64,000 nucleotides of DNA from SAR202 cluster bacterium AC-647-P02_OGT_505m (GCA_009391195.1 VEXB01000002.1:20214-84213); one strand, 5' to 3'. Counted from the stretch's first letter, positions 21,777 to 64,000 are shown. The notes: generated by a model from the letters alone, not told the origin. Program-made: numbers and translations.

Positions 21777-22055
21777 TCAGAATCCCCCTGCCACAGCTGG
21801 TACGATGCTAACTTCATCTCCAGATGATACCGAGCTGTTCATTCCGTTCAAGAAACGGACATCTTCTCCGTTAATATAGACGTTGACAAAACTCCTTAGT
21901 TCGCCATCATCGTCACATATACGAGCTTTAAGCCCAGGGAACTGTACCTCTAGTGACTTTACAACTTCTGCCATAGTTCCAGCGTCTACAGAGGCTTTAT
22001 CCTCTCCATTGGTAACCTTACGAAGCGGTGTTGGAATCCTGACGATAGCACTCAT
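21777..22055 (-). CDS. MoaD/ThiS/CysO-type ubiquitin-like sulfur carrier protein, C-terminus AVAGG-F
   Basis: 92 aa. FVNVYINGEDVRF...GDEVSIVPAVAGGF matches the CysO/MoaD pattern but has one residue after the Gly-Gly. Confidence 0.8.
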   Translation of the reverse strand: MSAIVRIPTPLRKVTNGEDKASVDAGTMAEVVKSLEVQFPGLKARICDDDGELRSFVNVYINGEDVRFLNGMNSSVSSGDEVSIVPAVAGGF

Positions 22056-22101
22056 TTTATTATCCTCTTTACTAAGATCTACTTATTATTGAGATCTAGA
22101 A

Positions 22102-22344
22102 CTAACCTTCTATTATGTCTCCGCCAACTGGGTCCACGCGTACACCGGTTGAAGCTACCCAGTCCAACCCGTCCTTAATGATTTCGTCGTCACCCTCTAA
22201 TTCTAAGACTACCCAACCCATTGAGTCCCGTACATCCGCTCTTCTTATGTTGGTGACGATTTCAAAATCAATACCTAGTTTGTAAATAACGGGTTCTTTT
22301 ATCAACTCGGAAGGAAATGTAAATCGCACTCTTTTGGTAGACAT
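22102..22344 (-). CDS. NIL domain-containing protein
   Basis: 80 aa. VRFTFPSELIKEPVIYKLGIDFEIVTNIRRADV...GWVVLELEG fits the NIL (MetN C-terminal-like) domain pattern. Confidence 0.7.
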   Translation of the reverse strand: MSTKRVRFTFPSELIKEPVIYKLGIDFEIVTNIRRADVRDSMGWVVLELEGDDEIIKDGLDWVASTGVRVDPVGGDIIEG

Positions 22345-22355
22345 TCGGATATATC

Positions 22356-23588
22356 CTAGGATTTTTGGGCTGCTGCCAAGGCGGTTTGAAACGTCTCGTA
22401 GTCAGGAGTGGTTTGAATAGGTTCTACAAAGTCTCCCATCGCTTCCATAGTTTTCAGACCATTTCCCGTCACATATGCAACGGTAACTTCATCTCTCTTA
22501 ATTTTTCCCTGCTCTACTAGTTTTTTTAGACTGGATATAACTACTCCTCCAGCTGTTTCGGTGAATATACCTTCGGTTTCAGCGAGTAGTTTTATTCCAT
22601 CTATTATAGTATTTTCTTCTGCGTAAACACCTGTTCCATCTGTTTCTTTCAAGACTTCTAGGGAGTATGGTCCCGCTGCAGGATTGCCGATTGCCAGTGA
22701 TTTTGCCAGTGTCTCTGGCCTGACTGGCGTAACATGGTCGCTTCCTGTTTCAAAAGCACCAACAATAGGGGAACAACCTTCTGGTTGAGCAAGGTGCATC
22801 TTTGTTTTGAGGTTTTCTATCAAACCTATGTCGTTAAATTCTTGAAGGCCTTTCCATATTTTTGTGTGAAGCTCTCCAGATGCCCCGGGGACCACGCAAT
22901 GATCCGGAGCCTTCCAACCGAGTTGCTCTGCTACTTCATATCCTAGTGTCTTGCTACCTTCAGCATAAAACGGTCTCATATTGATATTTACGAAAGCCCA
23001 GCGGTGATTATCCGCTAGTTCACTACAAAATCTATTGGCATGATCATAATTGCCTGTGACAGCTACCATAGTCGGACCATAGACTGCCGCCCCTTGGATT
23101 TTTCCCTGTTCCAGGTCAGCAGGATAAAAAACCATGGTTTTCATGCCAGCCTTTGCGCCATGAGCGGCAACGGACCCCATCAAATTACCTGTAGATACGC
23201 ATGCAAGTACTTCAAACTCAAATTCCAGAGCCTTAGTAGTTGTTACGGATACAGGACGATCTTTAAACGAGTAGGTCGGGTTTACACTGTCATTTTTTAT
23301 ATAAAGTTTGTCTAGTCCTAACTGGCTTCCTAGGTTTTTAGCATGAATCAGAGGAGTAAACCCAGTCGATATATCAATGGCTAACTCTCTGTCCACAGGT
23401 AGGAAGTCATGGTATCTCCACATTGTATTTGGACCAGCAGCAATAGATTCTCTACTCACGGCTTTGGAAATAGATTCATAATCGTACTCTACCTCAAGTG
23501 GGCCGAAGCAGAATTCGCAAGCGTTAAGCGGCTCTATAGGGTACTCGCTTCCACATTCACGGCACCTTAGACACTTTACGTGTGGCAA
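22356..23588 (-). CDS. Threonine synthase-like PLP enzyme with an N-terminal zinc ribbon (possible carrier-dependent homocysteine/cysteine synthase)
   Basis: 410 aa. CLRCRECG...CEFC ribbon and the SFKDR PLP-lysine motif. TTG start with AGGAG 7 nt upstream. Confidence 0.8.
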   Translation of the reverse strand: MPHVKCLRCRECGSEYPIEPLNACEFCFGPLEVEYDYESISKAVSRESIAAGPNTMWRYHDFLPVDRELAIDISTGFTPLIHAKNLGSQLGLDKLYIKNDSVNPTYSFKDRPVSVTTTKALEFEFEVLACVSTGNLMGSVAAHGAKAGMKTMVFYPADLEQGKIQGAAVYGPTMVAVTGNYDHANRFCSELADNHRWAFVNINMRPFYAEGSKTLGYEVAEQLGWKAPDHCVVPGASGELHTKIWKGLQEFNDIGLIENLKTKMHLAQPEGCSPIVGAFETGSDHVTPVRPETLAKSLAIGNPAAGPYSLEVLKETDGTGVYAEENTIIDGIKLLAETEGIFTETAGGVVISSLKKLVEQGKIKRDEVTVAYVTGNGLKTMEAMGDFVEPIQTTPDYETFQTALAAAQKS

Positions 23589-32159: not shown

Positions 32160-33398
32160 ATGAAAATCACTAATATAGAAAACTTTATCGTTGATGCTGG
32201 TTGGAGACCTTGGGGATTCGTCAAAGTGGAGACGGACGAGGGTATAACTGGGTGGGGTGAGTGTAGTGACGGGCGGTCGCCAAATGGAGTTGCAGGCACA
32301 ATCGAGGATTTGAAACCTGTCTTGATAGGAACTGATCCTAGGGAATTTGAGATGAGATTTTGGGATATGTTTAGGGCCACCCGTCAAAGCCCGGGAGGGA
32401 TTGCGGCAAAGGCTCTTGCGGGGTTGGACTGCGCCTTCATAGATATCAAAGCCAAAAGCCTTGGAATTTCAGTTCCAGAGCTTTTTGGGGGTCCAACTCG
32501 TGAAAGAGTACGTGTGTACTGGTCTCACTGCGGGACTTCTCGAGTTGGGAATAATGAACTTATTGGAGTACCTGCTCTTAGGACGTGGGATGATATTACT
32601 AATTTAGGTAAAGAAGTAGTTGAACGAGGATTTACAGCTCTAAAGACGAATATTATTGGTCCTGGCGATACCCCCGTACATTTTGGTGGCGGATTTGGAG
32701 GTGGTAAAGGGAGTACTGATCAGGTGGTCACGAAAGGTGTGCTTCGCCATGTGGAGAAGTTGATCGGTACATTTAGAGATGCAGTTGGTCCAGATGTTGA
32801 TATAAACCTTGATATTAACTTCAATTTTAAAACCGAGGCGTGTCTCAGGATAGCTCAAGTATTGGAACAGTTCGATATGCTTTGGTTAGAGATAGATATG
32901 TATCAACCTGAGAGTATAAGGCAAATAAAAGACTCAACTACTACTAGGATATGTACAGGTGAAAATCTTTTTTACATGAGGGATTATTTACCTTATTTTC
33001 AACAACATGCTGCGGATATGTTCATGATTGACGTGCCCTGGAATGGGTTCAGCCAATCCAAGAAAGTGGGAGATTTGGCCGAGGTTTTTCAGCATAACGT
33101 GGCTCCTCACAATTACTATAGCCATCTATCTACTTTTGTGAGTGCTTCTCTTTGTGCCTCTTTACCAAATATTCGAATCATGGAAATTGATATAGACGAT
33201 GTACCATGGAAAGACGAGTTGACAACTTCTAAGCCCGAAATTATTGATGGTTATATGACGGTTCCAGCTGGACCGGGTTGGGGGGCAGACATAAATGAGG
33301 AAGTTGCAAGAGCTCATCCATGGAAAGGTACCAGGGTCGGATATAGTTCTAGGGGAAACACCCCGTCAGAATTGTCATATGGGTTACCTTCCATCTAA
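32160..33398 (+). CDS. Enolase-superfamily enzyme (mandelate racemase / muconate lactonizing / acid-sugar dehydratase family)
   Basis: 412 aa. N-terminal capping domain MKITNIENF...VETDEGITGWGE and barrel motifs LWLEID and TGENL. Confidence 0.8.
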   Translation: MKITNIENFIVDAGWRPWGFVKVETDEGITGWGECSDGRSPNGVAGTIEDLKPVLIGTDPREFEMRFWDMFRATRQSPGGIAAKALAGLDCAFIDIKAKSLGISVPELFGGPTRERVRVYWSHCGTSRVGNNELIGVPALRTWDDITNLGKEVVERGFTALKTNIIGPGDTPVHFGGGFGGGKGSTDQVVTKGVLRHVEKLIGTFRDAVGPDVDINLDINFNFKTEACLRIAQVLEQFDMLWLEIDMYQPESIRQIKDSTTTRICTGENLFYMRDYLPYFQQHAADMFMIDVPWNGFSQSKKVGDLAEVFQHNVAPHNYYSHLSTFVSASLCASLPNIRIMEIDIDDVPWKDELTTSKPEIIDGYMTVPAGPGWGADINEEVARAHPWKGTRVGYSSRGNTPSELSYGLPSI

Positions 33399-34240
33399 AT
33401 TTCTTCTGGAATAGCTTGTCCGGATTGAAGGGTTTTTATAAGTGTAGCGGTTGCCTGTGGACGCTCCATATACATGTTGTGGCCAGTGTTCATGACAGTG
33501 CAGAAGTGAATATTGTTTTTGATCCGTGAGAGTTCCTTTACAGGTTGAAATACGCTTTGTCTTTCCTCACTGGCCATAAAAAGTGTTGGAACCTTTAATT
33601 TTTGGAGTGTTGGGAGCAAGTCAAAGTAGTCACCATCTCGATCTTTCCAACTCAGAGTCTGCGTTGCCCATTTCATGTCAAGCCGGCCATCTTCATTTAT
33701 AAATGTCTCGTGTTCAACAACGTCCTTGATAACCTCTGACGTCCATTTTTTTGTTACCTCGTGTTTTGATAAAACCTGGGTGAGCTCTTCCTTATTTGAC
33801 CACGTGGTTCTGGGTCGAGTTTCCCGAGCTGAAACCATTCGCTGAAATTTTTCATCTACGGTTATCATCGGTTCCAATAAAACAATGAAATTAAATGCAC
33901 TTGGTTTTCGAGCAGCATAAAGTGCTAGGGCAATTCCTCCTGTGGAATGAGCCACCACTGTGTCAGCATGCCCGTCAAAAACATTATTCACAAAATTTTC
34001 GATGTTATGTGAGCGTTCGACAAATCTATAGCCAGAAAACGGCCAATCACTGTTGCCATGTCCAAAAAGATCCATTGCTGTGACGGTATGTGTCAAAGCT
34101 AATTTCCGGGACAAAGCATCAAAGCTTCTGGATGTTCTCATATCTCCATGAATGAGAAGTATGGTGCTATTTCCGGTGCCCATTTGCACATAATGTGACT
34201 TGAGTCCTTCTAGCTCTACAAAATGATTCGTGGGTTTCAT
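33395..34240 (-). CDS. Alpha/beta hydrolase
   Basis: 281 aa. HG oxyanion motif (LIHGD), nucleophile elbow AHSTGG, and a C-terminal GH. Confidence 0.8.
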   Translation of the reverse strand: MKPTNHFVELEGLKSHYVQMGTGNSTILLIHGDMRTSRSFDALSRKLALTHTVTAMDLFGHGNSDWPFSGYRFVERSHNIENFVNNVFDGHADTVVAHSTGGIALALYAARKPSAFNFIVLLEPMITVDEKFQRMVSARETRPRTTWSNKEELTQVLSKHEVTKKWTSEVIKDVVEHETFINEDGRLDMKWATQTLSWKDRDGDYFDLLPTLQKLKVPTLFMASEERQSVFQPVKELSRIKNNIHFCTVMNTGHNMYMERPQATATLIKTLQSGQAIPEEI

Positions 34241-34284: not shown

Positions 34285-34324
34285 AAAAAAGCCAGTTCCG
34301 AAATATTTCGGAACTGGCTTTTTT
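34285..34324. terminator. Bidirectional rho-independent terminator
   Basis: AAAAAA-GCCAGTTCCGAAAT/ATTTCGGAACTGGC-TTTTTT. This is a perfect palindrome flanked by A6 and T6, located 17 nt past the stop of the MoaD-like gene. Confidence 0.85.
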
Positions 34325-34340
34325 CACTTAATTGATCGCT

Positions 34341-34607
34341 TCATACACCGCCGGATATGGCCGGAAGAAAGTGAACTTCACTGTCTGTCGAGACTTTTTC
34401 TATCATACCTAAAGGGGTTATTTCCCCATCAATTGCTACAGCTATATTAGGCTTAACCCTTCCGTCTTCCACAAGCCGTTCTTTAAAACCAGGGAATATC
34501 TCGTCTAGGTTGTCAATCACCTGTCTTACATTGTTACCCTCCACTGATACTCTTTGCTCTCCATTGGAGAGTTTCTGCATCAGTGAAGGTATGAAAACAA
34601 GTGCCAT
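34341..34607 (-). CDS. MoaD/ThiS-family ubiquitin-like sulfur carrier protein, C-terminus AISGG-V
   Basis: 88 aa, same fold pattern as 21777..22055 (FPGFKERL..., HFLPAISGGV). Last gene of the Mo-hydroxylase operon. Confidence 0.75.
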   Translation of the reverse strand: MALVFIPSLMQKLSNGEQRVSVEGNNVRQVIDNLDEIFPGFKERLVEDGRVKPNIAVAIDGEITPLGMIEKVSTDSEVHFLPAISGGV

Positions 34608-34620
34608 TACAGATGTATAT

Positions 34621-36867
34621 TTATTCTGCGTCAGCAGATTGTATAGCTCCCGGACTCATCGGTAGAGAAGTCATGCGCTTTCCTGTCGCGTCATATATAG
34701 CATTCGCTAAAGCGGGTGTGGGGGGCACTATGTTCGCCTCTCCAACCCCTCTGACTCCGAATGGATGTCCTGGGTTTGCTACTTCTACTATAACTGTATC
34801 TATCATTGGAAGATCTAGGGATGTTGGCATTCTGTAGTCTAGTAGACTAGAGTTTGTCATCGTTCCCTCGTCGTTCATGAAGTATTCTTCATTCAAGGCC
34901 CAACCAATGCCTTGGACGCTACCACCCTGCATTTGGCCTTCGACGTAACTCGGATGAATTGCTTTGCCTACGTCTTGGACGCATGTGAATCTTTCTACGG
35001 TGGTTTTTCCGGTGTCGGGATCTACTGACACATCAGCGATGTTTCCCGCAAATGATCCGCCCACACCCGATGGGTTCACCGAGGCTGAACCAGAGATTCC
35101 ACCTCCTGTGTCACTTAGTTGCTCTGCCAATTCTTTGAAGGTCATCTTGAGTTCAGAGTCACTCTGGGAACTTATGACGCCGTCTTCCATCTGAAGATTG
35201 TTGGCATCGACATCCCATATTATTGCAGCTCTATCAATACATTGTTTCTTCACATCTTGAGCCGCTTCATATGCTGCCCAACCAGTGGCAAAAGTTGTTC
35301 TGCTGCCCCCAGTTACTGCAGTGAATCCAATGGTATCTGTGTCTACAACAGAAGGTCTAACGTCTTCAACGGGAATTCCCAGAACCTCGGCTGCGTGCAT
35401 CGCGATGGAGGTTCTAGATCCTCCAATATCTGTGGAGCCCTCTGTCAGGTTGACTGAGCCATCTTTGTTAACAGCTATGTTGCATGCTGAGTCGAATCCG
35501 ATGTTGAACCAAAATCCTATGGATATTCCTCTGCCGGTTCCTTCTGCTTTTGCAGACTGGTAATGAGGATGATCGCGCATGGCTTCGAGCACTTCCTTTG
35601 CTCCAATTCTGCCAAACACCGGTCCGTCAGGTCTTCTGGTTCCTTCTGTAGCGACGTTTTTAAGGCGTAGTTCTATTGGATCCATTCCAAGTTTTTCAGC
35701 CAGTTCATTGATAGCTTGTTCTGCTCCAAAAGCCGCGTTGGGTGCTCCAGGGGCTCGGTAGGCCGCTGTTTTGGGCTTATTGACGACCACATCAAAACCG
35801 TCAATTGTGGAGTTTTCAACATCATAGGTGGAGAACACGCATTGAACTGCTGCTCCCACTGGAGATCCAGGGTATGCTCCGGCTTCCATAGCCATCCATG
35901 CATATGCAGCAGTGATCGTACCATCGTGTTTAGCCCCGATCTTGATCTTTATTTGTGATCCTGGAGTCGGACCTGAGGCCTCAAAAGTTTCTTTTCGGCT
36001 CATCACTATTTTCACAGGAGCCCCAGTTTTACGGGAAAGTAGAGCAGCCACTGGTTCCAAATAAATTGGAATCTTTCCACCGAATCCGCCCCCAATCTCC
36101 GTTGGAGTTACTCTTACCATCGAGACGGGCATGTCAAGTAACTCAGCTAGGCTATCCCTAACAACAAATGATCCCTGAGTACTACACCAAACGTGTAGTC
36201 TTCCGTCAGGGCTCCAGAGAGCAGTAGCGTTATGGGGTTCTATGTACCCTTGGTGAACTGTTTTTGTGTTGTATTCCCTTTCAACAACTACGTCAGCTTC
36301 CGCGAATCCTTTTGATATGTCGCCTTTTACATGTTGCGTATGAGAGGCTACGTTACTAACAACCCCTGTATCTTTTCCGAGTTCTTCAGTAGTTAAAGAG
36401 TCGTGTAGTATCGAGGCGTTTGTTGCCATCGCTTCCTGGGTTGTTAACACCGGCGTAAGTACTTCGTATTCTACGTCAATAAGGCCAAGAGCCGATTCTG
36501 CGACGTGAGGATTTGAGGCCGCAACTCCGACGATTGCTTGACCAACGTACAGAGCCTTATCGCTCGCTAGGATATTGTCTTTTAGCCATTGGTTACCGAC
36601 TTCTGGAAAGTCTTTTGAAGTAACAACAGCCTTAACCCCGTCCAGTTTTTCCGCCTTGCTAGTGTCAATTGAAACTATTTTAGCGTGGGCGTGTGGACTT
36701 CTCAAAATTTTTCCGTGAAGTAACCCTGCGGCATCAAAGTCAGCCCCATAAATCGCTCTGCCGGTTACTTTGTCTGCGCCGTCGTGGCGGACTGGTCTTG
36801 TTCCTATTACCTTATAGTCAGTGTCGGTAGCAAGGACCATATTTCTTTCATAGTCGGCCGTTGTCAT
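34621..36867 (-). CDS. Xanthine dehydrogenase / aldehyde oxidase family molybdopterin-binding large subunit
   Basis: 748 aa. GGGFGGK motif, AAYRAPGAP active-site loop region, and a C-terminal GVGE motif. Confidence 0.88.
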   Translation of the reverse strand: MTTADYERNMVLATDTDYKVIGTRPVRHDGADKVTGRAIYGADFDAAGLLHGKILRSPHAHAKIVSIDTSKAEKLDGVKAVVTSKDFPEVGNQWLKDNILASDKALYVGQAIVGVAASNPHVAESALGLIDVEYEVLTPVLTTQEAMATNASILHDSLTTEELGKDTGVVSNVASHTQHVKGDISKGFAEADVVVEREYNTKTVHQGYIEPHNATALWSPDGRLHVWCSTQGSFVVRDSLAELLDMPVSMVRVTPTEIGGGFGGKIPIYLEPVAALLSRKTGAPVKIVMSRKETFEASGPTPGSQIKIKIGAKHDGTITAAYAWMAMEAGAYPGSPVGAAVQCVFSTYDVENSTIDGFDVVVNKPKTAAYRAPGAPNAAFGAEQAINELAEKLGMDPIELRLKNVATEGTRRPDGPVFGRIGAKEVLEAMRDHPHYQSAKAEGTGRGISIGFWFNIGFDSACNIAVNKDGSVNLTEGSTDIGGSRTSIAMHAAEVLGIPVEDVRPSVVDTDTIGFTAVTGGSRTTFATGWAAYEAAQDVKKQCIDRAAIIWDVDANNLQMEDGVISSQSDSELKMTFKELAEQLSDTGGGISGSASVNPSGVGGSFAGNIADVSVDPDTGKTTVERFTCVQDVGKAIHPSYVEGQMQGGSVQGIGWALNEEYFMNDEGTMTNSSLLDYRMPTSLDLPMIDTVIVEVANPGHPFGVRGVGEANIVPPTPALANAIYDATGKRMTSLPMSPGAIQSADAE

Positions 36868-36872
36868 ACTCT

Positions 36873-37352
36873 TTACGCCTCCTGTAGTCGCTTCGCAGCG
36901 TCTTGGACTGCTCTAACAATTTTGTCATAGCCTGTGCATCGGCATAGGTTATTGGCAAGCCAAAACCTTATCTCATGCTCAGTCGGGTTCGGATTCTGTT
37001 CTAGCAGTGCTTTAGATGAAATTATGAAGCCCGGTGTACAGATTCCACACTGCAAGGCCGCATTTTCTAGGAACGCTAGTTGCAGTGGATGGAGATTGCT
37101 CCCGTCCGCGACACCCTCGATTGTCTCAATGTTGGCACCTTCTGCTTCTACACCGAGTACAAGGCAAGAAGTGACTATCCGTCCGTCTATGTTGACGGTG
37201 CAAGCTCCACAGTTCCCATCGTTGCAGCCCTCTTTGGTGCCTGTGAGACCTATCTCGTCCCTAAGGCATTCAAGTAAGCTCTGTCTGGGTTCACACAGGA
37301 AATCAACATGTTCCCCGTTTATCGTTGTTTGTACGTATGTTTTTCCTGGCAT
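36873..37352 (-). CDS. (2Fe-2S)-binding small subunit of the Mo-hydroxylase
   Basis: 159 aa. CNDGNCGACTV and CGICTPG...CRCTGY cluster motifs. Confidence 0.92.
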   Translation of the reverse strand: MPGKTYVQTTINGEHVDFLCEPRQSLLECLRDEIGLTGTKEGCNDGNCGACTVNIDGRIVTSCLVLGVEAEGANIETIEGVADGSNLHPLQLAFLENAALQCGICTPGFIISSKALLEQNPNPTEHEIRFWLANNLCRCTGYDKIVRAVQDAAKRLQEA

Positions 37353-38231
37353 TTAGCTCGCTCCCTGTGCTCTCTCTACTGCTGTGGTGAGGGCACGTCG
37401 TGTAAGAACATCGCAAAGATGTTTTCGGTAGTCTGCAGTGCCTCTCATATCGGATATTGGTTTCGCTGCGGCCTTGGCGAGATCTGCAGCCTTCTGAATT
37501 GCGCCTTCGCTGACTGGCTGTCCAACAAGGGCCTCTCCTGCTTCCTCTACCAAGAGTGGGGTGGGTGCGACTGAGGCCAAGCTTACTCTCGCAGATGTAA
37601 ATTTGCCGTCCTCAATAGTTACGGAGGCACCTACTCCCGCCACCGCAATGTCCATCTCATTTCTCGGAATGAATCTAATGTAATTAGCCCCAAACCCGGC
37701 GCCATTGCTGGGGAAGTTAATAGATATCAGTAGTTCGTCACTCTCAATGGATGTTTGTCCGGGCCCCGTGCATATATCTTCTACAGGGACTTCTCTCGTA
37801 CCAGAAGGACCTGTGATCGTCGCTACTGCTCTATGTGCAATCATATTTGGGATTGAGTCCCCGCTAGGAGCTGCATTACAAAGGTTCCCACCGAATGAGG
37901 CACGCCCCTGAATCTGGGTACCACCTATGAGCGTGGCAGAGTCGTTCAAAGCAGAGAAATGGCTGTTGACATTGTCGTCGCCATAAATCTTGTAGCATTC
38001 CACTGCTGCCCCTACAGTCAACCCTTTGTTGGCATCGTAACTGAGTTCGTTAAGTTCCGGAATGCTCTTTATGTCTACCACCACGTCAGGATTGACCCGA
38101 GGGTGTCCTACTCTTAGCATGACTATCAGGTCTGTACCACCTGCCATAGCTCTAGCGTTTCCACCTGAATCTGAAAGAAGTTTAACGGCATCTTCTACCG
38201 TATTGGGTTTCTCAAAATCTATCCACTTCAA
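37353..38231 (-). CDS. FAD-binding medium subunit of the Mo-hydroxylase (CoxM/XdhB-like)
   Basis: 292 aa. AGGTDL FAD motif and a C-terminal CO-dehydrogenase flavoprotein domain. Abuts the small-subunit gene with no gap. Confidence 0.88.
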   Translation of the reverse strand: MKWIDFEKPNTVEDAVKLLSDSGGNARAMAGGTDLIVMLRVGHPRVNPDVVVDIKSIPELNELSYDANKGLTVGAAVECYKIYGDDNVNSHFSALNDSATLIGGTQIQGRASFGGNLCNAAPSGDSIPNMIAHRAVATITGPSGTREVPVEDICTGPGQTSIESDELLISINFPSNGAGFGANYIRFIPRNEMDIAVAGVGASVTIEDGKFTSARVSLASVAPTPLLVEEAGEALVGQPVSEGAIQKAADLAKAAAKPISDMRGTADYRKHLCDVLTRRALTTAVERAQGAS

Positions 38232-38475: not shown

Positions 38476-41412
38476 TTAGTCGGCCACAGCACCCATTGGA
38501 ATTTTGGCTAGCAAAGAGTTTAGATAGGAACCTGTGTGAGATCCTTCAACTTTGGCCACGTCTTCGGGTGTCCCAACGCAAACTATTTCGCCTCCCCTGT
38601 CACCAGCACCTGGTCCCATGTCGATTAGCCAATCCGCGTTTTTGATTAGATCAAGATGATGTTCTATTAATACTACAGAGTTACCAGAATCAACTAGACG
38701 ATGCATAACTTTTAACAGATGTGCACAGTCTTCAAACGATAATCCAGTCGTTGGTTCATCCAATATGTAAAGGGTTTGTCCCGTAGCTCTTTTTGAGAGT
38801 TCAGTGGCAAGCTTGACTCTCTGTGCCTCTCCACCACTTAGTTGGGTTGCTGGTTGTCCTAGCCTTATATAACCCAGCCCAACATCTTTTAGCGTCTGCA
38901 ACTTGTTGCTGACTCTTGGGATATTTGAGAACAGATCGACGGCTTCGGTTACAGTCATTGAAAGTACGTCAGCTATGCTATGCCCCCTGTAAAGAATTTC
39001 GAGGGCTTCTCTGTTATATCTGCTCCCCACACAATCTTCACACGGCACACTGACGTCAGGAAGGAATTGCATTTCGATATTTATCTGCCCATCGCCTGAA
39101 CACGCCTCACATCTACCCCCTTTAACATTAAAGGAGAATCTGCCAGGTTTATACCCTCTACTTCTCGCTTCGGGTACTTGAGCAAAAAGTTCTCTTATAG
39201 GAGTGAATGTGCCGGTATAGGTTGCGGGATTACTTCGTGGAGTTCTACCAATCGGAGACTGGTCAATGTTCACAACTTTATCTAGGTTGTCTATTCCGCG
39301 AATTTCTTTGAAAGATCCAGGACGGTCTCTTGAACTATAGAAATGTTGTGAAAGTTTTTTGTAAAGAATTTCATTTATCAGTGTGCTTTTACCGGAGCCT
39401 GACACACCAGTGACGCAGACAAATATACCTAAAGGAATGTCCACATCTATGTCTTTGAGATTGTTTTGGGCCGCTCCTTCTATAGTGAGATACGACCCGT
39501 TGTAGGTGCGCCTGCTGGCGGGAATGTCGATCTTCTTTTTTCCTGACAGGTATTGCCCTGTAAGGGACCTAGGATTAGACATTACCTTTTTGGGTGTTCC
39601 TGATGCGACTATGTGCCCCCCGTGTTCTCCAGCTCCCGGGCCCAAATCTACAATATGATCTGCGGCCCTCATAATCGCTTCATCGTGCTCAACGATAAGT
39701 ACAGTATTCCCAACATCCCGAAGACCTTTTAGGGTATTAATTAGTCGGTCATCATCCGCAGGGTGAAGACCTATGGAAGGTTCATCACAGACATATAGTA
39801 CCCCCATCAGGCCTGAACCTATTTGGGTGGCTAGTCTGATCCTTTGTGCCTCTCCGCCACTTAAAGTTGAAGCTGTTCTGCTAAGAGTCAGATAGTCCAG
39901 CCCAATGTTTAAAAGGAATTCAAGTCGAGCCCCTATTTCCTTCAGTATCTGGGAGGCAATTGATATTTGCCTTTCAGTCAGTACCCCTTTTTCATTCAGA
40001 TTAGTAGTCCATTCATAACACGCCCTTATTGACAGGTCGGTCACGTCCATGATGGTATCTTCGTTAACAGTCACAGCAAGTGCTTCAGGTCTTAAGCGTC
40101 TTCCTTTGCAACTTTGGCAGGGTAGTGACGTCATGTATCGTTCGATATCTTTTCTAACGCTTTCGGATTCTGTCTCAGTATGCCGTCTCTCCAGATTATT
40201 AATCACTCCTTCGAATTTCGTTTTCCAACGGTACGTTCTTCCCCTTCTTGTTTTGTGATTAATCTGGATTCTCTTGCCACCGGTGCCTTGGAGAATGATG
40301 TTAAGGTGATCATCAGTTAATTTATCTATCGGTGCATTAGGATCAAATCCTATTGAGTCTGCTAGTGACAGTAATTGACTTGAATACCACGGAGACATGG
40401 ATCCTGAACGTGCCCACCCCACGATTCCTCCGTCTGTGATTGATTGTGATTTGTTTGGGATGACTAAATCTGGATCAACTACTAGTTTGTACCCGAGGCC
40501 GGCACAGATAGTGCAGGCGCCGTGTGGATTGTTAAAGCTAAAGGTGCGTGGTTCTAATTCCCCTAGATTTACATTGCAGTGCACACATGCAAAGTCTTCG
40601 GAAAAAATCATCTCGTCTCCACCTTGAACATCCACCATCACGAGACCTTCAGATTGAGATAGAGCGGCCTCCGCACTCTCCGTTACCCTGCCCTGGTCAA
40701 CAGAGCTATTGATAATGAGCCTATCAACAACAACATCGATGTTGTGCCATTTTTGTTTGTCTAAGTCGAATTTGTCCGACAGATCATGTGTCTCTCCGTC
40801 AACTCGAACTCTAACGAATCCAGCGCGCCTTGCTGATTCAAAAACGTCACGATGCTCACCCTTTCTTCTCCTCACCACTGGCGCCAGTATTTGAATCCTG
40901 CTTTCGTCGGGTAGCGATAGGATTGAATCGGCTATTTGCTGCACCGTTTGTTTTTGGATCACACGTCCACACTTGAAGCAATGTGGTGTACCTATTCGAG
41001 CAAACAAAAGTCTTAGGTAGTCATAAATTTCAGTGACTGTACCGACCGTGGATCTGGGATTGTGTGATGTCCCTTTCTGGTCGATTGAAATGGCTGGTGA
41101 GAGGCCCTCTATGTAATCGACTTCTGGCTTGTCCATTCGCCCCAGAAATTGTCTGGCATACGATGAAAGTGATTCTACATATCTTCGTTGACCTTCAGCG
41201 TAAATTGTGTCAAAAGCCAGAGAGCTTTTGCCTGAACCAGAAACGCCGGTAATAACGACCAGCTTGTTTCTAGGTATAGTCACATCAACGTTTTTGAGGT
41301 TGTGCTCCCTCGCGCCTTTGACAATTATGTTTTTAGCTAACCCATTTGATGCCAAAATTGCTGCCCTTGAAAGCTTATCTAATGAATGCAGTGCTCGATG
41401 TGATTCTATCAT
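38476..41412 (-). CDS. uvrA: Excinuclease ABC subunit A
   Basis: Two ABC modules ([10 protein letters not shown] and [15 protein letters not shown] twice) plus zinc fingers. The start is uncertain. The ORF is open to 41541, and I chose Met44 (41412) because the earlier Mets collide with the divergent aminotransferase start. Confidence 0.9.
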
Positions 41413-41503
41413 CCAAATTGAGGTTCTTAAGCTTGATGTATCTTGTGATATGGATATAGAATCCTTCGGATATCCACGATATTTATTTTTCAAGGAGATA
41501 TTC

Positions 41504-42697
41504 ATGGCACTCGACTTCCGCTCCCTTCTCGCTGACCACATCCCTGATGGAGGAAGAGGGGCACGTCCACGCAGAGGAAAGTATGACTTTGCAGTCGCAT
41601 ATCCAGATCCGGTTTCTTTGCCTCATGACAAGATAATGGAATGCCTGAGCGAGGCTTTATCAGAAACAGGGGATGATTTAGCTGTTTATCCCCATCCTCA
41701 GGGCAATACTCCTTTGAGAGAATATGTGGCTGAAAAAATTAAACGCGAAAGAGATATAAACGCGACTGCGGATGACATCATACTTGGTAATGGCTCTGGC
41801 CAACCTATAGACATGATATCCGCCATATTAGTTAACCCGGGAGATGTGGTCATAACTGATGAGTGGGTATATGGCGGGACTCTCAATACTTTAAGAAGGC
41901 ACTCGGCTGATATTCGGGGTGTATCTTCTGATGAAGAAGGAATGGATCCAGAAGCTCTGGATTTTGAGATCGCAAAGGCTGTACAAGAGGGGAAGAGACC
42001 AAAATATGTTTACCTTATTGCTACTTTCCAAAACCCACAGGGATTCACGATTACCAAAAGACGTAGAGAGCAGTTATTGGAAGTGACACACAGGCATGGA
42101 GTCCCCATTTTAGAGGACGATTGTTACGCCGATAATCGATATGGTGGGGAGCAGGTTACCTCGATGTATAACCTGGACGATCAAAACAGCGTGATGTATG
42201 TGGGCTCATTCTCAAAAATTATTGCGCCTGGAATGAGCTTGGGATATATGACAGGTCCAGACGACGTTTTGGATCGTGCAATGACTGTTAAAAGCGGTCG
42301 TATAAGTGAATTTACCGCTATGGCCGTTGAAAAATTTGCGCGCAGGTATCTAGACGCCCACGTGGAGGAGATCAACAGTATCCAGCGTGTTAAACGCGAC
42401 GCGATGCTGGCTTCGCTTGGCGAAAATTTCGGAACTGGAGCTGAGTGGAGTGATCCAGACGGTGGACTGTATATCTGGATGAAATTGAATGATGATGCGG
42501 ATATGGTTTCACTAAGTGCAAAGGCCTTAGAAGAAATAGATGTAGGTTTTCACCCAGGTACCAACTATTCTCCAGATGGTGCCAGCGGAAGGAGTTACAT
42601 AAGATTATGCTATGGCTATAACCAGCCGGAGGAAATAGAGGAAGGGATAGGTAAGCTTGGTGACTTTCTTGCCAAAGAGGGAGCCTTGCAGTCCTGA
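41504..42697 (+). CDS. PLP-dependent aminotransferase (class I/II fold)
   Basis: ATG at 41504 preceded by [19 protein letters not shown]-lysine motif. The upstream part of ORF 41207.. is antisense to uvrA and is not counted. Confidence 0.82.
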
Positions 42698-43357: not shown

Positions 43358-43540
43358 TGTCGACTAGGTCCTCTGTTGCTGAACGTAATTCATAGGTTAC
43401 ATTTGGGTCGCTAATGTCCAAAATATGAATTTTAAGTTTGACAGTAATTTATCACTTGATACCCTAGATATGAAGAATGTGCATCTAAAGCAGATATAAA
43501 CAGAGTAGCATGCTGCCTAGGTCAGTTGGGAGTTAACCTT

Positions 43541-44695
43541 ATGAAAGAGGTATTTGAAGACGCTGTAGAAAAGCTTGGAAAAGGTGAGCCTGTAGTTGTT
43601 GCTACTGTTATTAGAACGAAAGGATCGACGCCTCAGAAACCCGGAGCCAAGCTTTTAGTAAGACAGGATGGCTCTGGAACCGGAACGTTGGGCGGAGGCT
43701 GTGTGGAAGGAGATATATGGTTTGCAGCCAAGCAACTTATGCAGAGGGGTGGAGCAGCGGAATATAAGGAATACGAACTCAATGAAGAACTTGCTGCAGA
43801 GGATGGCCTCGTCTGCGGTGGAACTATGTATTTTCTAATTGATCCCGTTTACAGCCCAGGCGATTATCTCCCCTATGCTGAAGAAATCTCAGGAGCTTAT
43901 CAGGGAGAAGGATCTGTTGCTTTAGCCACTGTTATTAAATCGGGTGATGATGGGACTTCAGTGATAGGTGATAAATTATTCATTCGCGAAAATGGTGAAA
44001 CTGAGGGATCTCTGGGAAGTGAAGATTTAGACGTAGCAGCTATTGACAAGGCTTTTGAACTAATGGTGCATGGGCGTAATGAATATGTAACCACGGCTAC
44101 AGGAGCCGAGTACTTTATTGAGGCTTATACAACCCCACCGCAACTTGTAATTTGTGGAGGCGGACATGTGTCAAGAGCCTTAGCTTCCTTGGCCAAACCT
44201 TTGGAATTTCGATTGTTTATAACGGATGATAGAGAAGAATTTGCCAACCAAACTAGATTTCCCGAAGCTGACATTGTTGTTAATGAAAAACCTGAAGAGG
44301 CTTTGCCCACCCTTCCGATTAACCCGAACACATTCATCGTTGTCGCAACCAGGGGCCACAGATATGACAATACAGCTCTTCTTGCCGCAGCCAAAACCCC
44401 TGCCAAGTATGTTGGGTTGATGGGGAGTAAGAGAAAAACAATTTTAATATATGAAGATTTGATGAGAGGTGAACTGACTCTAGAAAGAATTAGGGAAATT
44501 CGTTCACCGATTGGTCTTGATATCAGAGCGAGAACACCTGAAGAGATAGCCATCAGCATAATGTCGGAAATATTGATGTTCCGACTTGGTGGTAGCGGCT
44601 CACCAATGAAATTAGATGACTCTCAACTCGAAAGAATTGAGAAAAAGGTGGCAGGAACACCTAATCAGCCTTCTGGGCAGCCAATAAACCTTTAG
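43541..44695 (+). CDS. XdhC/CoxI family molybdenum-cofactor insertion chaperone
   Basis: N-terminal VATVIRTKGSTPQKPGAK and a Rossmann-like ICGGGHV. ATG at 43541 with GGGAG upstream. Confidence 0.85.
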   Translation: MKEVFEDAVEKLGKGEPVVVATVIRTKGSTPQKPGAKLLVRQDGSGTGTLGGGCVEGDIWFAAKQLMQRGGAAEYKEYELNEELAAEDGLVCGGTMYFLIDPVYSPGDYLPYAEEISGAYQGEGSVALATVIKSGDDGTSVIGDKLFIRENGETEGSLGSEDLDVAAIDKAFELMVHGRNEYVTTATGAEYFIEAYTTPPQLVICGGGHVSRALASLAKPLEFRLFITDDREEFANQTRFPEADIVVNEKPEEALPTLPINPNTFIVVATRGHRYDNTALLAAAKTPAKYVGLMGSKRKTILIYEDLMRGELTLERIREIRSPIGLDIRARTPEEIAISIMSEILMFRLGGSGSPMKLDDSQLERIEKKVAGTPNQPSGQPINL

Positions 44696-44701
44696 TCAAA
44701 A

Positions 44702-45298
44702 GTGTTTCATGCTACAGCTATATTAACCGCTGCTGGATACTCAAGTAGAATGGGTCGCTCGAAGTCCCTTTTACCTTGGAACGGAACTACCCTAATCAAA
44801 CATCAAGTATGTTCACTCCGTCGGGGTGGATGCTGTGAGGTTGTTGTTGTTCTTGGTCATCAGTCGGATGAGCTTAGTAGTGAACTTGACGGGCTGGATG
44901 TCATTCTGGCAGAAAATATTGACTACAAGACGGGGCGGATTTCCTCCATTAAGTGTGGGGTACAGACCGCGTCATCAGAGACTGATTGTTATGTTTTGCT
45001 GGGTGTGGATCAGCCCAGACATTTTTCTATAGTAGCCACTTTAATAAAAAGTCACGTGAGAACAAAATCACTTGTAACGTCTCCAAGATTTGAGGAAAAA
45101 GGCGGGCACCCAGTCATTTTTTCTTCCAAATTGAGGGAGGAGATTCTCGCTCTTGAAGAGGGGGATGGAGGTTTGCGCAAGGTGTTTAATGAATACAGAG
45201 ATGTGGTGAATGAAGTTAAATTCTCGGATCAAGAAATACATCTTGACCTTAATACATTGGAAGAATATGAAACAGCTTTATCTAAATATTCCAGATAA
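44702..45298 (+). CDS. MobA/MocA-like nucleotidyltransferase (molybdenum cofactor cytidylyl/guanylyl transferase)
   Basis: 198 aa. AILTAAGYSSRMGRSKSLLPW N-terminal motif. Lies directly after xdhC. Confidence 0.78.
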   Translation: MFHATAILTAAGYSSRMGRSKSLLPWNGTTLIKHQVCSLRRGGCCEVVVVLGHQSDELSSELDGLDVILAENIDYKTGRISSIKCGVQTASSETDCYVLLGVDQPRHFSIVATLIKSHVRTKSLVTSPRFEEKGGHPVIFSSKLREEILALEEGDGGLRKVFNEYRDVVNEVKFSDQEIHLDLNTLEEYETALSKYSR

Positions 45299-60708: not shown

Positions 60709-62340
60709 TTAAAATATTTCTCGTGGCATTGGCTTGAACATACAACCTTCAACGAATATATCGAAAAAATCTGGTGTTGTTTCCAATTCTATATGTTCAA
60801 CTTTTCTGACCAGTTGCTCTATCGATATTCTTGAAGAGACAGATTTGAGCATAATGGTTGCTCCCTCGAGAGAAGCATTTCCTACCTTGGATATTTTTTC
60901 CGTGGGGAAGTCCGCTATGAATCCTATCGACTTAGCATTATCGGCATTTATATAGTTTGCAAACCCGCCGGCAAGATATAGAGTTTCCAAATCTTCTATC
61001 GATTTCCCAAAATGTCTCATGGCGATGAACTGACCAGAATAGTTCGCCGATTTAGCCTGGGCTAAAGCACTTATGTCAGATCTATATAGGTACATTTCAT
61101 GGTCAGGGGCAAAGGCGAATTGATTAGAATCATTAGAATATTTTCCAAGTTCATCCATGGCCTCTGTTCTGCGAAGTTCGGAGAGGAGATCGACGAGACC
61201 AGAACCACAAATACCTTCAACGTCTGCATCACCTATGGTAGAAAGATTGACTTTTCCTTCCCGTATTGAAACTGCTTCAACGGCTCCGTCATATCCAGGC
61301 ATTCCGTAGGTGACCTCTCCACCTTCAAAAGCCGGCCCGGCAGGACAGGAAGCGGTTACCATTCCGGAACTGTCACCAATCACAACCTCAGTGTTGGTAC
61401 CTATGTCCACAAGCATTCTTGGGGATTTTGCTGTATCCATCCCAATGGCCAACATGTCCGCTGCCACATCAGTTCCTACATGCGATCCTACTAGTGGTCC
61501 GCTGTATACTTTTGCATCTGGGTGCACTCTCAATCCCATGTTGGAGGCAGAGCATTCCACTGCCGTAGATTCACGTGTTTTATTTTCAAATTCCGTTTGA
61601 ATCAGAGATTTGTAGGGTTTTTGGCCGACAGATTGAACATCTATTCCAAATAATAGATCTCTCATTGTCGTGTTTCCTACTAGCACTACGTCATATATAC
61701 AACGTCGACGGAGCGATTTCCTGTCAGGATTTCGAGTCATTGCTCCAATTTCAAAATTGATGGAGGAGAGCATCACCTGTTTTAACTCTCCCTGAAAGAC
61801 TCCCCCGTCATAAGAAATACGGTTCATGACGTCTCCCCCACCGAATCTTTGGGGATTCTCAAATGAGGAGGTTTGAATTATTTCTCCAGATTCCAGATCT
61901 ACCAGGTTTAAAACGACAGTCGTGGTACCTATGTCTCCAGCTATTCCGAAGATACCGCCTCTATATTTATCGATGACCTGGCCATCCGCAATAACGTTGT
62001 CACTATCCCTGGTTACCCTTGGTTCTAACTTTATTTTTCTCTGTATGCTTTTAGACAGAATACGGGGCTGCCGTCTTAGAGTCGCAAATTCAACTGTTGC
62101 CCGTGAATCCTCTAGGGTCGTTCTACAAGCAAGCCTGTAATTGCCTCTGAGAAATTTTTCCTGATCAGTAATGAGATTTAAAGAGTTCATCCCGTTTCGA
62201 ATCTCAACAATGCATTCGTGGCATTCTCCTGTTCTACCACATGAAGTGGGGACACGTACGTCAAGAGAGTCCGCATAATCAAATAAAGTATTTTTTTCTC
62301 TATATTGGACTTCTCGTCCATCGGCTATTACAGGAGACAT
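60709..62340 (-). CDS. Corrinoid reductive activation protein (RACo/RamA-like: 2Fe-2S ferredoxin domain plus ASKHA ATPase)
   Basis: 543 aa. N-terminal plant-type ferredoxin Cys pattern (CGRTGECHEC...LACRT), followed by actin-like ATPase motifs (GIAGDIGTTT, VDIGTNTE). Confidence 0.8.
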   Translation of the reverse strand: MSPVIADGREVQYREKNTLFDYADSLDVRVPTSCGRTGECHECIVEIRNGMNSLNLITDQEKFLRGNYRLACRTTLEDSRATVEFATLRRQPRILSKSIQRKIKLEPRVTRDSDNVIADGQVIDKYRGGIFGIAGDIGTTTVVLNLVDLESGEIIQTSSFENPQRFGGGDVMNRISYDGGVFQGELKQVMLSSINFEIGAMTRNPDRKSLRRRCIYDVVLVGNTTMRDLLFGIDVQSVGQKPYKSLIQTEFENKTRESTAVECSASNMGLRVHPDAKVYSGPLVGSHVGTDVAADMLAIGMDTAKSPRMLVDIGTNTEVVIGDSSGMVTASCPAGPAFEGGEVTYGMPGYDGAVEAVSIREGKVNLSTIGDADVEGICGSGLVDLLSELRRTEAMDELGKYSNDSNQFAFAPDHEMYLYRSDISALAQAKSANYSGQFIAMRHFGKSIEDLETLYLAGGFANYINADNAKSIGFIADFPTEKISKVGNASLEGATIMLKSVSSRISIEQLVRKVEHIELETTPDFFDIFVEGCMFKPMPREIF

Positions 62341-62474
62341 AACTCAATCCTAACAAATGTAAAGAATATTAAATGGAGAATGGGCATATAGAAAGAGTAA
62401 ATAACCAGTGGCGTCTTTCATAGAGTTATGAGTACGTCGGGATGGATTTCTGGATTGAATGAAATGTACGTAAG

Positions 62475-62753
62475 CTAACTTATTGGAGTCTCAGATTCCC
62501 AGGCGTCACGGTAATCTAAATCATCACTACCAATGCAAATATATAGCTCTCCCGGGGACACCTTTACATCTTGATTTCTACAGCCAAACTTTGCTGTGCA
62601 TCTGTCCTGAGCATTTTTGTAGGGACAACGAGATTTTGAGATTTCATTTACGGATTTAGATATGTCTCTAAATATGCCGTCAAGTCTTTTGAGGCTGGTA
62701 GCATATTTGTCTTTGTCGAATTTTGGCTGGTTATCGCCTACGTTGGCTGGCAC
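62475..62753 (-). CDS. Small Cys-containing hypothetical protein within the corrinoid module
   Basis: 92 aa with four Cys (CPYKNAQDRCTAKFGC...YIC). Lies 18 nt downstream of the corrinoid protein gene. Confidence 0.55.
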   Translation of the reverse strand: MPANVGDNQPKFDKDKYATSLKRLDGIFRDISKSVNEISKSRCPYKNAQDRCTAKFGCRNQDVKVSPGELYICIGSDDLDYRDAWESETPIS

Positions 62754-62771
62754 TTTTCAAGTCCTCTTTGA

Positions 62772-63530
62772 TTAGAAGGCTACACCAGTTTCTTTTCCAA
62801 GTCCCAGAAAAGACTTGGCTAGGTCTACGCATTCTATAGCGTCCTTTCCATACCCGTCCGCTCCCATATCATCTGCAAACTCCTGTGAAAGTGGAGCACC
62901 ACCAACCATTACTTTGACCAGGTCTCTCATTTCAACTTCTTCTATCGCCTCTATGGTTCTCCCCATATTTGGCATTGTGGTAGTGAGAAGAGCTGACATC
63001 CCAAGAACGCTAGCCTCGGTTTCTTCTAATGCTTCGATAAATTCATCAGACGATGTATCAACCCCAAGGTCCACGACCGTAAATCCCGCTCCTCTAAGCA
63101 TCATTATGCATAGGTTTTTACCGATATCGTGCAGGTCACCTTTGACAGTTCCCATTATCACAGTCCCCATCGGTTCTACCCCTGAAGCAGAAAGAATAGG
63201 TTCAACGTGTTCCATTCCAGCTTTCATGGCCCTGGCCGCCACAAGTACTTCGGGCACAAAGATTATGTTGTCTCTAAACTTGACTCCCACTATCGCCATA
63301 CCGGCGATCAAACCATCATCCAGAATAGTGTTCGCACTGAATCCTTCGTCTAAGGCCTTCTTCGTCAAGTCGTATACGTCATTGTTATTTCCGTGAATAA
63401 GGTTTACGGAAATTTCTTGCATCAGTGGGTCAGCGTCATTCCAGAGTGATCTAATATGAGATTCCTCTGATGGGTTGGTCACGTATGTTAATTCTTTTTC
63501 AAGATCCTCATTAACAACTGGCATTTGCAT
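62772..63530 (-). CDS. Cobalamin-binding corrinoid protein (MtaC/MttC/MtgC-like)
   Basis: 252 aa. N-terminal helical cap plus a B12-binding domain with GDLHDIGKN (DxHxxG), MSALLTTT (SxL) and MVGGAP (GG). Confidence 0.9.
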   Translation of the reverse strand: MQMPVVNEDLEKELTYVTNPSEESHIRSLWNDADPLMQEISVNLIHGNNNDVYDLTKKALDEGFSANTILDDGLIAGMAIVGVKFRDNIIFVPEVLVAARAMKAGMEHVEPILSASGVEPMGTVIMGTVKGDLHDIGKNLCIMMLRGAGFTVVDLGVDTSSDEFIEALEETEASVLGMSALLTTTMPNMGRTIEAIEEVEMRDLVKVMVGGAPLSQEFADDMGADGYGKDAIECVDLAKSFLGLGKETGVAF

Positions 63531-63636
63531 TCCTTATGAGATTGGTTTCTTAAACAATCCCTTTATTTAATCTGTTGTTATGCTTTGTAAAACAAGATCC
63601 AACGTCTAATTATACGGCTGGTTGGACAGCGCTGGG

Positions 63637-64000
63637 TTATTGGCTGATTCGCTCTCCAGTCCAATCTTTAACGGCAAGGGGAATTTCCATGAGATTTTGT
63701 ATCTTTGTTGCGAGCGGTATAGCGCACTCTGGGGCAATCATTTGAACACCGGCTTCTAGGCATTTGTATACTTCCTGCCTAACTTCTTCAGGACCCCGGG
63801 CGTACAGTGTCTCTGGATTGTTTATATTACCCACCAATCCAATACCTCCGTTGACAGCATCCATGGCCTCTTGCGGGTCGTTTTTTGAATCGAAATGAAA
63901 TGAAGCCATACCAGTCTGTGCAATATAAGGCATTCTGTCCACAGTTCTACCGCATATGTGTAGGATTAAAGGCACTGGTAGTGCTTCCACCATGTCTGTA
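63637..64000 (-). CDS. Uroporphyrinogen-decarboxylase-family methyltransferase (MtaA/MtbA-like methylcorrinoid transferase), C-terminal part only
   Basis: The frame runs past the window edge. LILHICGRT and MIAPECAIP match the zinc-ligand regions of MT2-type methyltransferases. Confidence 0.75.
   Translation of the reverse strand, partial: TDMVEALPVPLILHICGRTVDRMPYIAQTGMASFHFDSKNDPQEAMDAVNGGIGLVGNINNPETLYARGPEEVRQEVYKCLEAGVQMIAPECAIPLATKIQNLMEIPLAVKDWTGERISQ

Follow-up and report, generated by a model that had tools for sequence, protein, structure and literature searches.

Few enzyme families have expanded as far in SAR202, or in many bacteria of soil and sea, as the molybdenum hydroxylases of the xanthine dehydrogenase (XDH) family. 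To our knowledge, maturation of their cofactor is understood from only a few model systems (XdhC together with NifS/IscS), and all sulfido insertions that we know of use a cysteine-desulfurase persulfide. Factors of the XdhC/PaoD/CoxI type serve the insertion of the sulfurated cofactor and are encoded by the fourth gene after the structural genes (xdhABC, paoABCD). For tungsten aldehyde oxidoreductases (AOR), strictly linked MoaD genes have been described and were read as dedicated to the cofactor of these enzymes (Iyer, Burroughs and Aravind, 2006, PMC1779556; AorD/AorE of Aromatoleum aromaticum, PMC6365974). MoeB is frequently encoded in the tungsten-AOR clusters, and MoaE or MoaA now and then; the XDH family is not mentioned in that work (PMC1779556). 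Here we analyze a stretch of 64,000 nucleotides from SAR202 cluster bacterium AC-647-P02_OGT_505m (GCA_009391195.1, VEXB01000002.1:20214-84213), hereafter the window, in which the genes for the M, S and L subunits of a molybdenum hydroxylase are followed by a gene for a small sulfur carrier-like protein of the ThiS/MoaD fold.

Four consecutive open reading frames (ORFs) on the minus strand encode, in this order, M, S, L and the carrier. The gaps of 0, 5 and 13 nt and the perfect hairpin behind the carrier, both described in the initial annotation, were reproduced, as were its other statements of fact:

37353..38231, minus strand: M subunit, FAD-binding, 292 amino acids, TTG start (Pfam FAD_binding_5 4.7e-39, CO_deh_flav_C 1.1e-26)
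36873..37352, minus strand: S subunit with two [2Fe-2S] clusters, 159 amino acids (Pfam Fer2_2 4.5e-30 and Fer2)
34621..36867, minus strand: L subunit, molybdopterin-binding, 748 amino acids (Pfam Ald_Xan_dh_C, MoCoBD_1 and MoCoBD_2, E 1e-28 to 6e-70)
34341..34607, minus strand: CysO/SAMP1-like carrier of the ThiS/MoaD fold, 88 amino acids, C-terminus PAISGG-V (Pfam ThiS 33.5 bits)
34285..34324, no strand assigned: perfect 18-bp hairpin with A- and T-tracts (-27.5 kcal/mol, z -6.4)

The FAD, 2x[2Fe-2S] and MoCoBD domains of all three subunits are present (Pfam), which places the enzyme in the molybdenum hydroxylase family, and no NCBIfam equivalog cut-off was reached by M, S, L or the carrier. 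The window has a GC content of 43%, and its nearest relatives are metagenome-assembled genomes (MAGs) of SAR202/Dehalococcoidia. The hairpin has a 4-nt loop, an A-run on one side and a T-run on the other, and none of 200 shuffled sequences was as stable as the native one. A simple scan for terminator patterns did not flag it. The structure could be a terminator that closes the M-S-L-carrier unit, possibly active in both directions. Similar hairpins are found 3' of the carrier in other SAR202 lineages; locus L013, whose carrier and next gene overlap, has none. The carrier is thus the last gene before a strong hairpin, and its adjacency to L recurs across phyla in both search directions (below), which bears out the earlier proposal that it belongs to the hydroxylase transcription unit.

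We see about an even chance that the carrier is a thiocarboxylate sulfur carrier dedicated to maturing the molybdenum cofactor of the co-encoded hydroxylase and that it is activated and, where needed, trimmed by enzymes encoded elsewhere. This interpretation rests on comparative genomics. It is favored because the constant partner of the carrier is the L subunit of a single clade and because the tungsten-AOR systems offer an analogue.

Conservation of the carrier next to orthologous hydroxylase operons, on which the initial annotation had made its proposal hinge, was found in SAR202, in metagenomes, in distant homologs and on plasmids. For SAR202 we scanned one genome per GTDB species and used the best 80 of 541 relatives, all of them Dehalococcoidia or Chloroflexota MAGs. 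M-S-L was located upstream of the carrier on the same strand in 74 of the 79 informative species loci; L and carrier are no more than 40 nt apart in 36 loci, a number that rises to 49 if up to 150 nt is allowed. Two layouts were seen. In the first, to which the window belongs, the carrier begins 8-30 nt after L, and a strong hairpin comes behind it. In the second, L and carrier are 0.1-4 kb apart, and the stop codon of the carrier overlaps or adjoins a PIG-L gene, behind which lie genes of the DHDPS family and for an alpha/beta hydrolase. No hydroxylase was found within 10 kb at locus L010 or, among the 80 species loci of the scan, at five (L033, L035, L047, L052, L088).

Beyond SAR202, the matches to a profile built from distant carrier members carry the labels Chloroflexi, Tectomicrobia and Alphaproteobacteria. 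An L gene was found 2-250 nt upstream in all six distant homologs that we looked up; in four of them M and S are lacking, and transposase genes lie on both sides of one of these four pairs. Among metagenome loci (n=80, GC 46-68%), L was directly upstream of the carrier in 37 of 59 informative cases, and these L proteins share 55-64% identity with the L of the window. The 22 unlinked metagenome cases are in unrelated, Planctomycete-like contexts. In a neighbor-joining tree of 166 carriers, L-linked and unlinked members are interspersed, and because of this the linkage between L and carrier looks ancestral, with repeated loss. The downstream partner varies (PIG-L, aspartic protease, DHDPS-family, hydrolase, D-serine-dehydratase-like) and the constant partner is L.

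The same arrangement exists in cultured organisms. Plasmids with M-S-L followed by a "MoaD/ThiS family protein" were found in Sinorhizobium meliloti (32 records of pSymA, among them that of strain 1021, with the carrier gene at 1151646-1151888), Mesorhizobium sp. AR07 and Marivivens, and the megaplasmid of Ruegeria pomeroyi DSS-3 carries M-S-L-carrier as SPO_RS21915-21930, the carrier being SPO_RS21930. Carrier plasmid records of Shinella and of a Rhizobium were assigned by sequence match alone. The rhizobial and roseobacter carriers are 32-35% identical to the carrier of the window and, at equal search threshold, the plasmid carriers match this L-linked protein and not a second, ThrC-linked paralog that the window also encodes. 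We also searched in the reverse direction, starting from L and taking plasmid L proteins at least 59% identical to that of R. pomeroyi, which covers about six independent genera. An L of this clade occurs in 37 plasmid records, which agree with the 37 carrier records in genera and in the number of records per genus, and L and carrier are adjacent in every plasmid record inspected. No ThiS-like ORF follows the L gene of Thermomicrobium (38% identical). Since the chromosome of R. pomeroyi encodes moaD/moaE as well (SPO3634/SPO3633, PMC10041152), its L-linked carrier is an additional paralog. In this organism the carrier is therefore not the only moaD; a carrier that is the only one was what the initial annotation had named as damaging to its proposal. 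XdhC was not annotated beside the rhizobial and roseobacter M-S-L-carrier operons within the annotated neighborhood.

The enzymes that come with this carrier are XDH-family hydroxylases with the L loop AAYRAP[GS]. The plasmid-encoded L proteins of S. meliloti (pSymA) and R. pomeroyi (megaplasmid) share this loop and are 49-50% identical to the L of the window over the full length. In the window the loop reads KTAAYRAPGAP and aligns to the VAYRCSFR loop of CO dehydrogenase, in agreement with the initial annotation, which had pointed to AAYRAPGAP in place of the CO dehydrogenase motif. The catalytic Glu (GVGE, in GVGEANIV) and the active-site Gln (STQG) are kept, as aligned to CO dehydrogenase and 4-hydroxybenzoyl-CoA reductase. 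Form I CO dehydrogenase (CoxL) was rejected as an assignment, given that the loop lacks the Cu-binding Cys and that L scores 292 with TIGR02416 (cut-off 991). The closest solved structure is the alpha subunit of 4-hydroxybenzoyl-CoA reductase, a distant relation at ~326 bits, and this identity was rejected as well, the scores being under the equivalog cut-offs for alpha (477 vs 995), beta (133 vs 405) and gamma (167 vs 258). As to clues to the substrate, none of the neighboring genes (enolase-superfamily, DHDPS-family, PIG-L, CoA transferase, enoyl-CoA hydratase) reaches an equivalog cut-off, which is too little to commit to a substrate.

The tungsten-AOR MoaD genes resemble the carrier in several respects. 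Both are small ThiS/MoaD-fold genes strictly adjacent to the gene of the pterin-binding subunit, both occur sporadically across phyla, and neither forms part of the general moa operon. The mark of an enzyme-linked dedicated MoaD, a place strictly beside the gene of the pterin-binding subunit in distant lineages, was found here, and coexistence with a separate general moaD in one genome was seen in R. pomeroyi DSS-3. Unlike the tungsten systems, the enzyme is of the XDH family and uses molybdenum, none of MoeB, MoaE or MoaA is linked to the carrier at the 174 loci searched (below), and the carrier is CysO-like.

To define the carrier itself, we compared sequence and predicted structure with known families. 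The protein falls within PF02597 ThiS (33.5 bits, gathering score 22.5). An AlphaFold2 model built from 45 homologs had a pLDDT of 89.4 and showed a beta-grasp fold. Foldseek assigned it a probability of 1.0 against CysO, SAMP1, MoaD and Urm1, with template modeling (TM) scores of 0.89-0.90 for CysO, 0.71 for SAMP1 and 0.66 for E. coli MoaD. Among solved proteins, the CysO carriers 4n6e_B (E 1.6e-6) and 3dwg_C are nearest in sequence. The carrier stays below the cut-offs of the canonical MoaD model TIGR01682 (17.4 bits vs 66.15), of SAMP1 NF041918 (38.8 vs 60) and of the archaeal-type MoaD TIGR01687 (31.8 vs 49.5). Judged by these sequence and model comparisons, the carrier is CysO/SAMP1-like and not a canonical MoaD. 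The family, which has a common SEVHF-PA-GG motif, comprises 913 representatives when clustered at 50% identity, and E is <=1e-10 for 292 of these; sources label it "molybdopterin synthase sulfur carrier" or "MoaD/ThiS family protein".

The search also returned unusual members. In the giant predicted protein P0121 (7571 residues), 15 stretches match the carrier at 23% identity; they may be beta-grasp repeats in tandem. Two further proteins are fusions of the carrier, one with an alpha/beta hydrolase (P0156, 372 amino acids) and one with an S-adenosylmethionine methyltransferase (P0230, 350 amino acids), and both keep Gly-Gly at the junction. The hydrolase domain of the former has no BLAST-detectable similarity to the alpha/beta hydrolase encoded in the window.

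Comparison with better known carrier systems gave a mixed picture. CysO-CysM-Mec of M. tuberculosis and BexX/CysO of Amycolatopsis contain the closest solved relatives, with ~90 amino acids and a C-terminal tail of the PAVAGG type. In contrast to them, the constant partner of the carrier is a molybdenum-binding subunit, and no CysM-type PLP (pyridoxal phosphate) acceptor, ThiG-type acceptor or E1 is adjacent to it in the window, in which a JAMM peptidase is lacking altogether. Canonical MoaD, the partner of MoaE, has the beta-grasp fold and the C-terminal Gly-Gly in common with the carrier; it is activated to a thiocarboxylate and supplies the sulfur of the type of cofactor that L binds. Besides its low score with the canonical MoaD model and its lower TM score, the carrier differs from it in never being adjacent to moaE at the 174 loci. 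With the XdhC/PaoD/CoxI-type factors the carrier shares the position of a fourth gene, whereas the fold is unrelated. The thioacid operons for PDTC and quinolobactin (MoeZ-JAMM-carrier-CaiB-AMP ligase) use the same broad type of carrier (32% identity), and some SAR202 loci likewise hold CaiB-type transferases and AMP ligases. Unlike the carrier loci, these operons have an adjacent E1 and JAMM peptidase and no molybdenum enzyme.

G86 and G87 of the carrier are invariant, and the PA[IL]xGG motif is kept across the family in our alignments. The initial annotation had emphasized that exactly one residue follows Gly-Gly in both carriers of the window. This is correct for the window (GG-V and GG-F), but the masked GG-V did not hold up as a conserved or designed feature. 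A bare Gly-Gly C-terminus was found in 94 of the 120 closest homologs and in the rhizobial and roseobacter orthologs. Across 82 SAR202 loci, P-A-[IL]-x-G-G is followed by no residue in 21, by one residue (mostly Ala) in 47 and by 2-14 variable residues in the others, and representatives of the clusters at 50% identity have the same spread. Because the tails are variable and often lacking across orthologs, the alignments argue that a tail is tolerated rather than designed. Where a tail is present it implies trimming, by analogy with Mec-type peptidases: in the MetO system, Mec is described as maturing carriers with residues after Gly-Gly (Hasebe et al., 2024, as cited in a GapMind 2026 preprint). 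A tail was seen in 32 of 35 carriers with a PIG-L neighbor and in 29 of 47 without one; as the lineages are not independent, we set aside a tie between the tail and a PIG-L or aspartic-protease neighbor.

About ten SAR202 loci have a Prok-JAB (Mec-like) gene beside a gene for a PDZ-domain protein, 3-9 kb upstream of M-S-L-carrier. Examples are L020 (2878-3297, minus strand), where a sulfite-oxidase-like molybdenum enzyme intervenes, and L076 (1344-1781, minus strand). The linkage of Prok-JAB to the carrier cluster is only loose. At L010 (10317-10676) and in 19 of the 80 SAR202 loci, a gene for a retropepsin-like aspartic protease (PF13650, 30.6 bits) lies directly downstream of the carrier. 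The eukaryotic Ddi1 combines ubiquitin-like (Ubl) and retropepsin domains, and the carrier-retropepsin neighborhood, here known from gene adjacency, recalls this combination.

On these grounds a pathway of three steps may be proposed. Any residues after Gly-Gly, a single Val in the window, would be removed by a peptidase encoded elsewhere, for which a Mec/JAMM-type enzyme is a candidate. An E1 of the MoeZ/MoeB type, likewise encoded elsewhere, would then adenylate the C-terminal Gly, leading to the thiocarboxylate. Finally, the thiocarboxylate sulfur would mature the molybdenum cofactor destined for the co-encoded L subunit. As to where the sulfur would go, we lean slightly towards the dithiolene, with the carrier acting like MoaD together with the MoaE of the cell, over the terminal Mo=S ligand. 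The MoaD-like role fits because the tungsten AOR provide a precedent. The more specific idea that the carrier thiocarboxylate installs or restores the terminal Mo=S sulfido ligand in one widespread clade of the XDH family, in which it would replace an XdhC-type gene, is unlikely in our estimate. It stays alive because MoaE is not linked, because R. pomeroyi has canonical moaD/moaE and because the carrier occupies the position typical of xdhC.

Several observations weigh against a carrier dedicated to the hydroxylase. Its fold is nearer to CysO than to MoaD by Foldseek, and about 20% of the family does not adjoin L (Planctomycete-like contexts and five SAR202 loci). None of the genes for MoaE, MoeB/ThiF, MoaA, MoaC or canonical MoaD was detected within 6-10 kb of the carrier at 174 loci (2.2 Mb), using E. 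coli queries for MoaE and MoeB that were checked against the PDB, together with queries for MoaA, MoaC and MoaD; the other ORFs of the window did not reveal a Moco (molybdenum cofactor)-synthesis or E1 gene either, as judged from translations and from Pfam scans of ambiguous ones. Genes are inserted between L and carrier in some SAR202 lineages. We considered these as cofactor genes, and at loci L025, L029, L038, L039, L044, L046 and L048 they were instead identified as toxin-antitoxin modules (HicA/HicB-like, RelE-like with antidote), an NYN-domain gene and an ABC substrate-binding protein. A PIG-L gene abuts or overlaps the carrier stop in ~30 SAR202 lineages (e.g. L009, 10267-10992), which suggests translational coupling of this PIG-L/LmbE-family deacetylase or amidase gene to the carrier. 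A low-GC lineage with Planctomycete-like flanks has a gene for a D-serine-dehydratase-like PLP enzyme 3 nt after the carrier. A general-purpose carrier of the MoaD/CysO type, which serves all Moco synthesis and perhaps other thiolations and whose position has no enzyme-specific meaning, would account for the fifth of the family in unrelated housekeeping contexts, for the lack of a linked dedicated E1 or MoaE and for the annotation as molybdopterin synthase sulfur carrier. We nevertheless regard such a carrier as unlikely. It is difficult to reconcile with the co-occurrence with one L clade in 37 of 37 plasmid records, with linkage across phyla, with the canonical moaD/moaE present in R. pomeroyi and with 17 bits against a canonical MoaD cut-off of 66. 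Moreover, the family is found beside moa genes in 0 of 174 loci, whereas canonical MoaD is usually encoded in moa operons (PMC1779556).

The nearness to CysO in fold and sequence raises another explanation, as CysO feeds sulfur into metabolites: the sulfur might go to a small molecule of a pathway, such as a thioacid or thiol, or into a CysO-like reaction with a neighboring PLP enzyme or amidase, rather than to the cofactor. The coupling to PIG-L, the D-serine-dehydratase-like neighbor, the carrier-alpha/beta hydrolase fusion and the CaiB-type CoA transferases and AMP ligases near some loci, which are reminiscent of PDTC-type thioacid operons, all point in this direction. We consider it quite unlikely, since downstream partners change by lineage while L is constant, minimal pairs of L and carrier occur without such enzymes nearby, the rhizobial and roseobacter operons are M-S-L-carrier only, and the diverse set shows no conservation of CaiB or AMP-ligase genes. 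A role without sulfur has an equally small chance in our view. The beta-grasp protein TmoB is a subunit of toluene monooxygenase and SAMPs are ubiquitin-like modifiers; the carrier might similarly dock on L as a structural or chaperone partner, or modify proteins. This would agree with the close pairing with just L, seen also where M and S are lacking, with the absence of a linked E1 or sulfurtransferase, with the weak similarity to SAMP1 and with the tails of many members, which would block activation unless removed. Yet an invariant C-terminal Gly-Gly within PA[IL]xGG is typical of adenylated carriers, conjugation machinery is not seen nearby, and the MoaD-like AorD/AorE are absent from the purified tungsten enzyme (PMC6365974), a precedent for a role in maturation and not as a subunit. 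Finally, the neighborhood of uvrA, M-S-L, carrier, hydrolase, enolase and ligase is syntenic as a whole within SAR202, so that the adjacency could in principle be vertically inherited gene order without function. This is extremely improbable and already contradicted by the cross-phylum data: the pair recurs with unrelated flanks in loci whose carriers are labelled Tectomicrobia or Alphaproteobacteria, in the lineage with Planctomycete-like flanks and on plasmids of rhizobia and roseobacters, and transposases flank one pair.

The D-serine-dehydratase-like gene was seen at L132 (6264-7388) and nine similar loci and at L136 (5590-6690), and is followed by a gene for a Dabb-domain protein. A CysO-like pairing of carrier and D-serine-dehydratase-like enzyme is possible.

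The second ThiS-fold carrier of the window (21777-22055, minus strand, 92 amino acids, ending AVAGG-F) reaches 67 bits with NCBIfam SAMP1 (cut-off 60) and is 39% identical to the L-linked carrier. It is located 300 nt downstream of a ThrC-like PLP enzyme (the two together span 21777-23588, minus strand). A thiocarboxylate route to homocysteine by MetO/MetM, in which Mec matures and MoeZ activates the carrier, has been described (Hasebe et al., 2024, as cited in a GapMind 2026 preprint), and MetM is often misannotated as threonine synthase. As the ThrC-like neighbor matches the MetO/MetM arrangement, this carrier is likely, by sequence and gene context, of the MetO type and placed beside a MetM-like gene. 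The MetO-MetM-Mec-MoeZ system of Streptomyces, in which the carrier needs Mec for maturation, resembles the trimming predicted for the L-linked carrier; the latter differs from MetO in having no ThrC-like partner. One MoeZ and one Mec could serve both carriers of the window.

Further features are found on both sides of the operon:

33395..34240, minus strand: alpha/beta hydrolase, beyond the hairpin and on the same strand as the operon (Pfam)
43526..44695, plus strand: XdhC-family Moco-insertion chaperone (Pfam XdhC_C 6e-40, XdhC_CoxI 6e-31)
44702..45298, plus strand: MocA-like nucleotidyltransferase (Pfam NTP_transf_3 1.6e-32)

A hydrolase gene is present downstream of the carrier in 63 of 80 SAR202 loci and overlaps the carrier stop in L001-L004 and L013. 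That xdhC and mocA lie about 5 kb from the operon, as noted in the initial annotation, was confirmed by Pfam. The XdhC gene is ~5.3 kb from the operon start, on the opposite strand and non-adjacent, and its position is syntenic in loci L012, L013 and L030. The MocA-like gene predicts, from its sequence, the cytosine dinucleotide form of the cofactor. Between the operon and xdhC, the ORFs of uvrA (38476-41541, 1021 amino acids) and of an aminotransferase (41207-42697, 496 amino acids) overlap one another. The corresponding proteins of relatives are shorter (959 and 397 amino acids), and the true starts are probably internal to these mechanical ORFs. At the far end, the window contains a corrinoid methyltransferase module (60709-63993, minus strand) with genes for a RACo-type corrinoid activator (Fer2 and RACo domains), for a corrinoid protein that binds B12 and, truncated at the end of the window, for a URO-D/MtaA-like methyltransferase.

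We did not find the pairing of such a carrier with XDH-family enzymes described in the open-access literature, to which our search was confined, subscription literature lying outside it. The pairing points to an undescribed helper for this hydroxylase clade. The same operon is present in the tractable organisms S. meliloti 1021 (pSymA) and R. pomeroyi DSS-3, which makes the question directly testable. For the maturation of XDH-family hydroxylases, a carrier that travels with one clade from Chloroflexota to Alphaproteobacteria suggests an unstudied maturation step or a variant of the cofactor.

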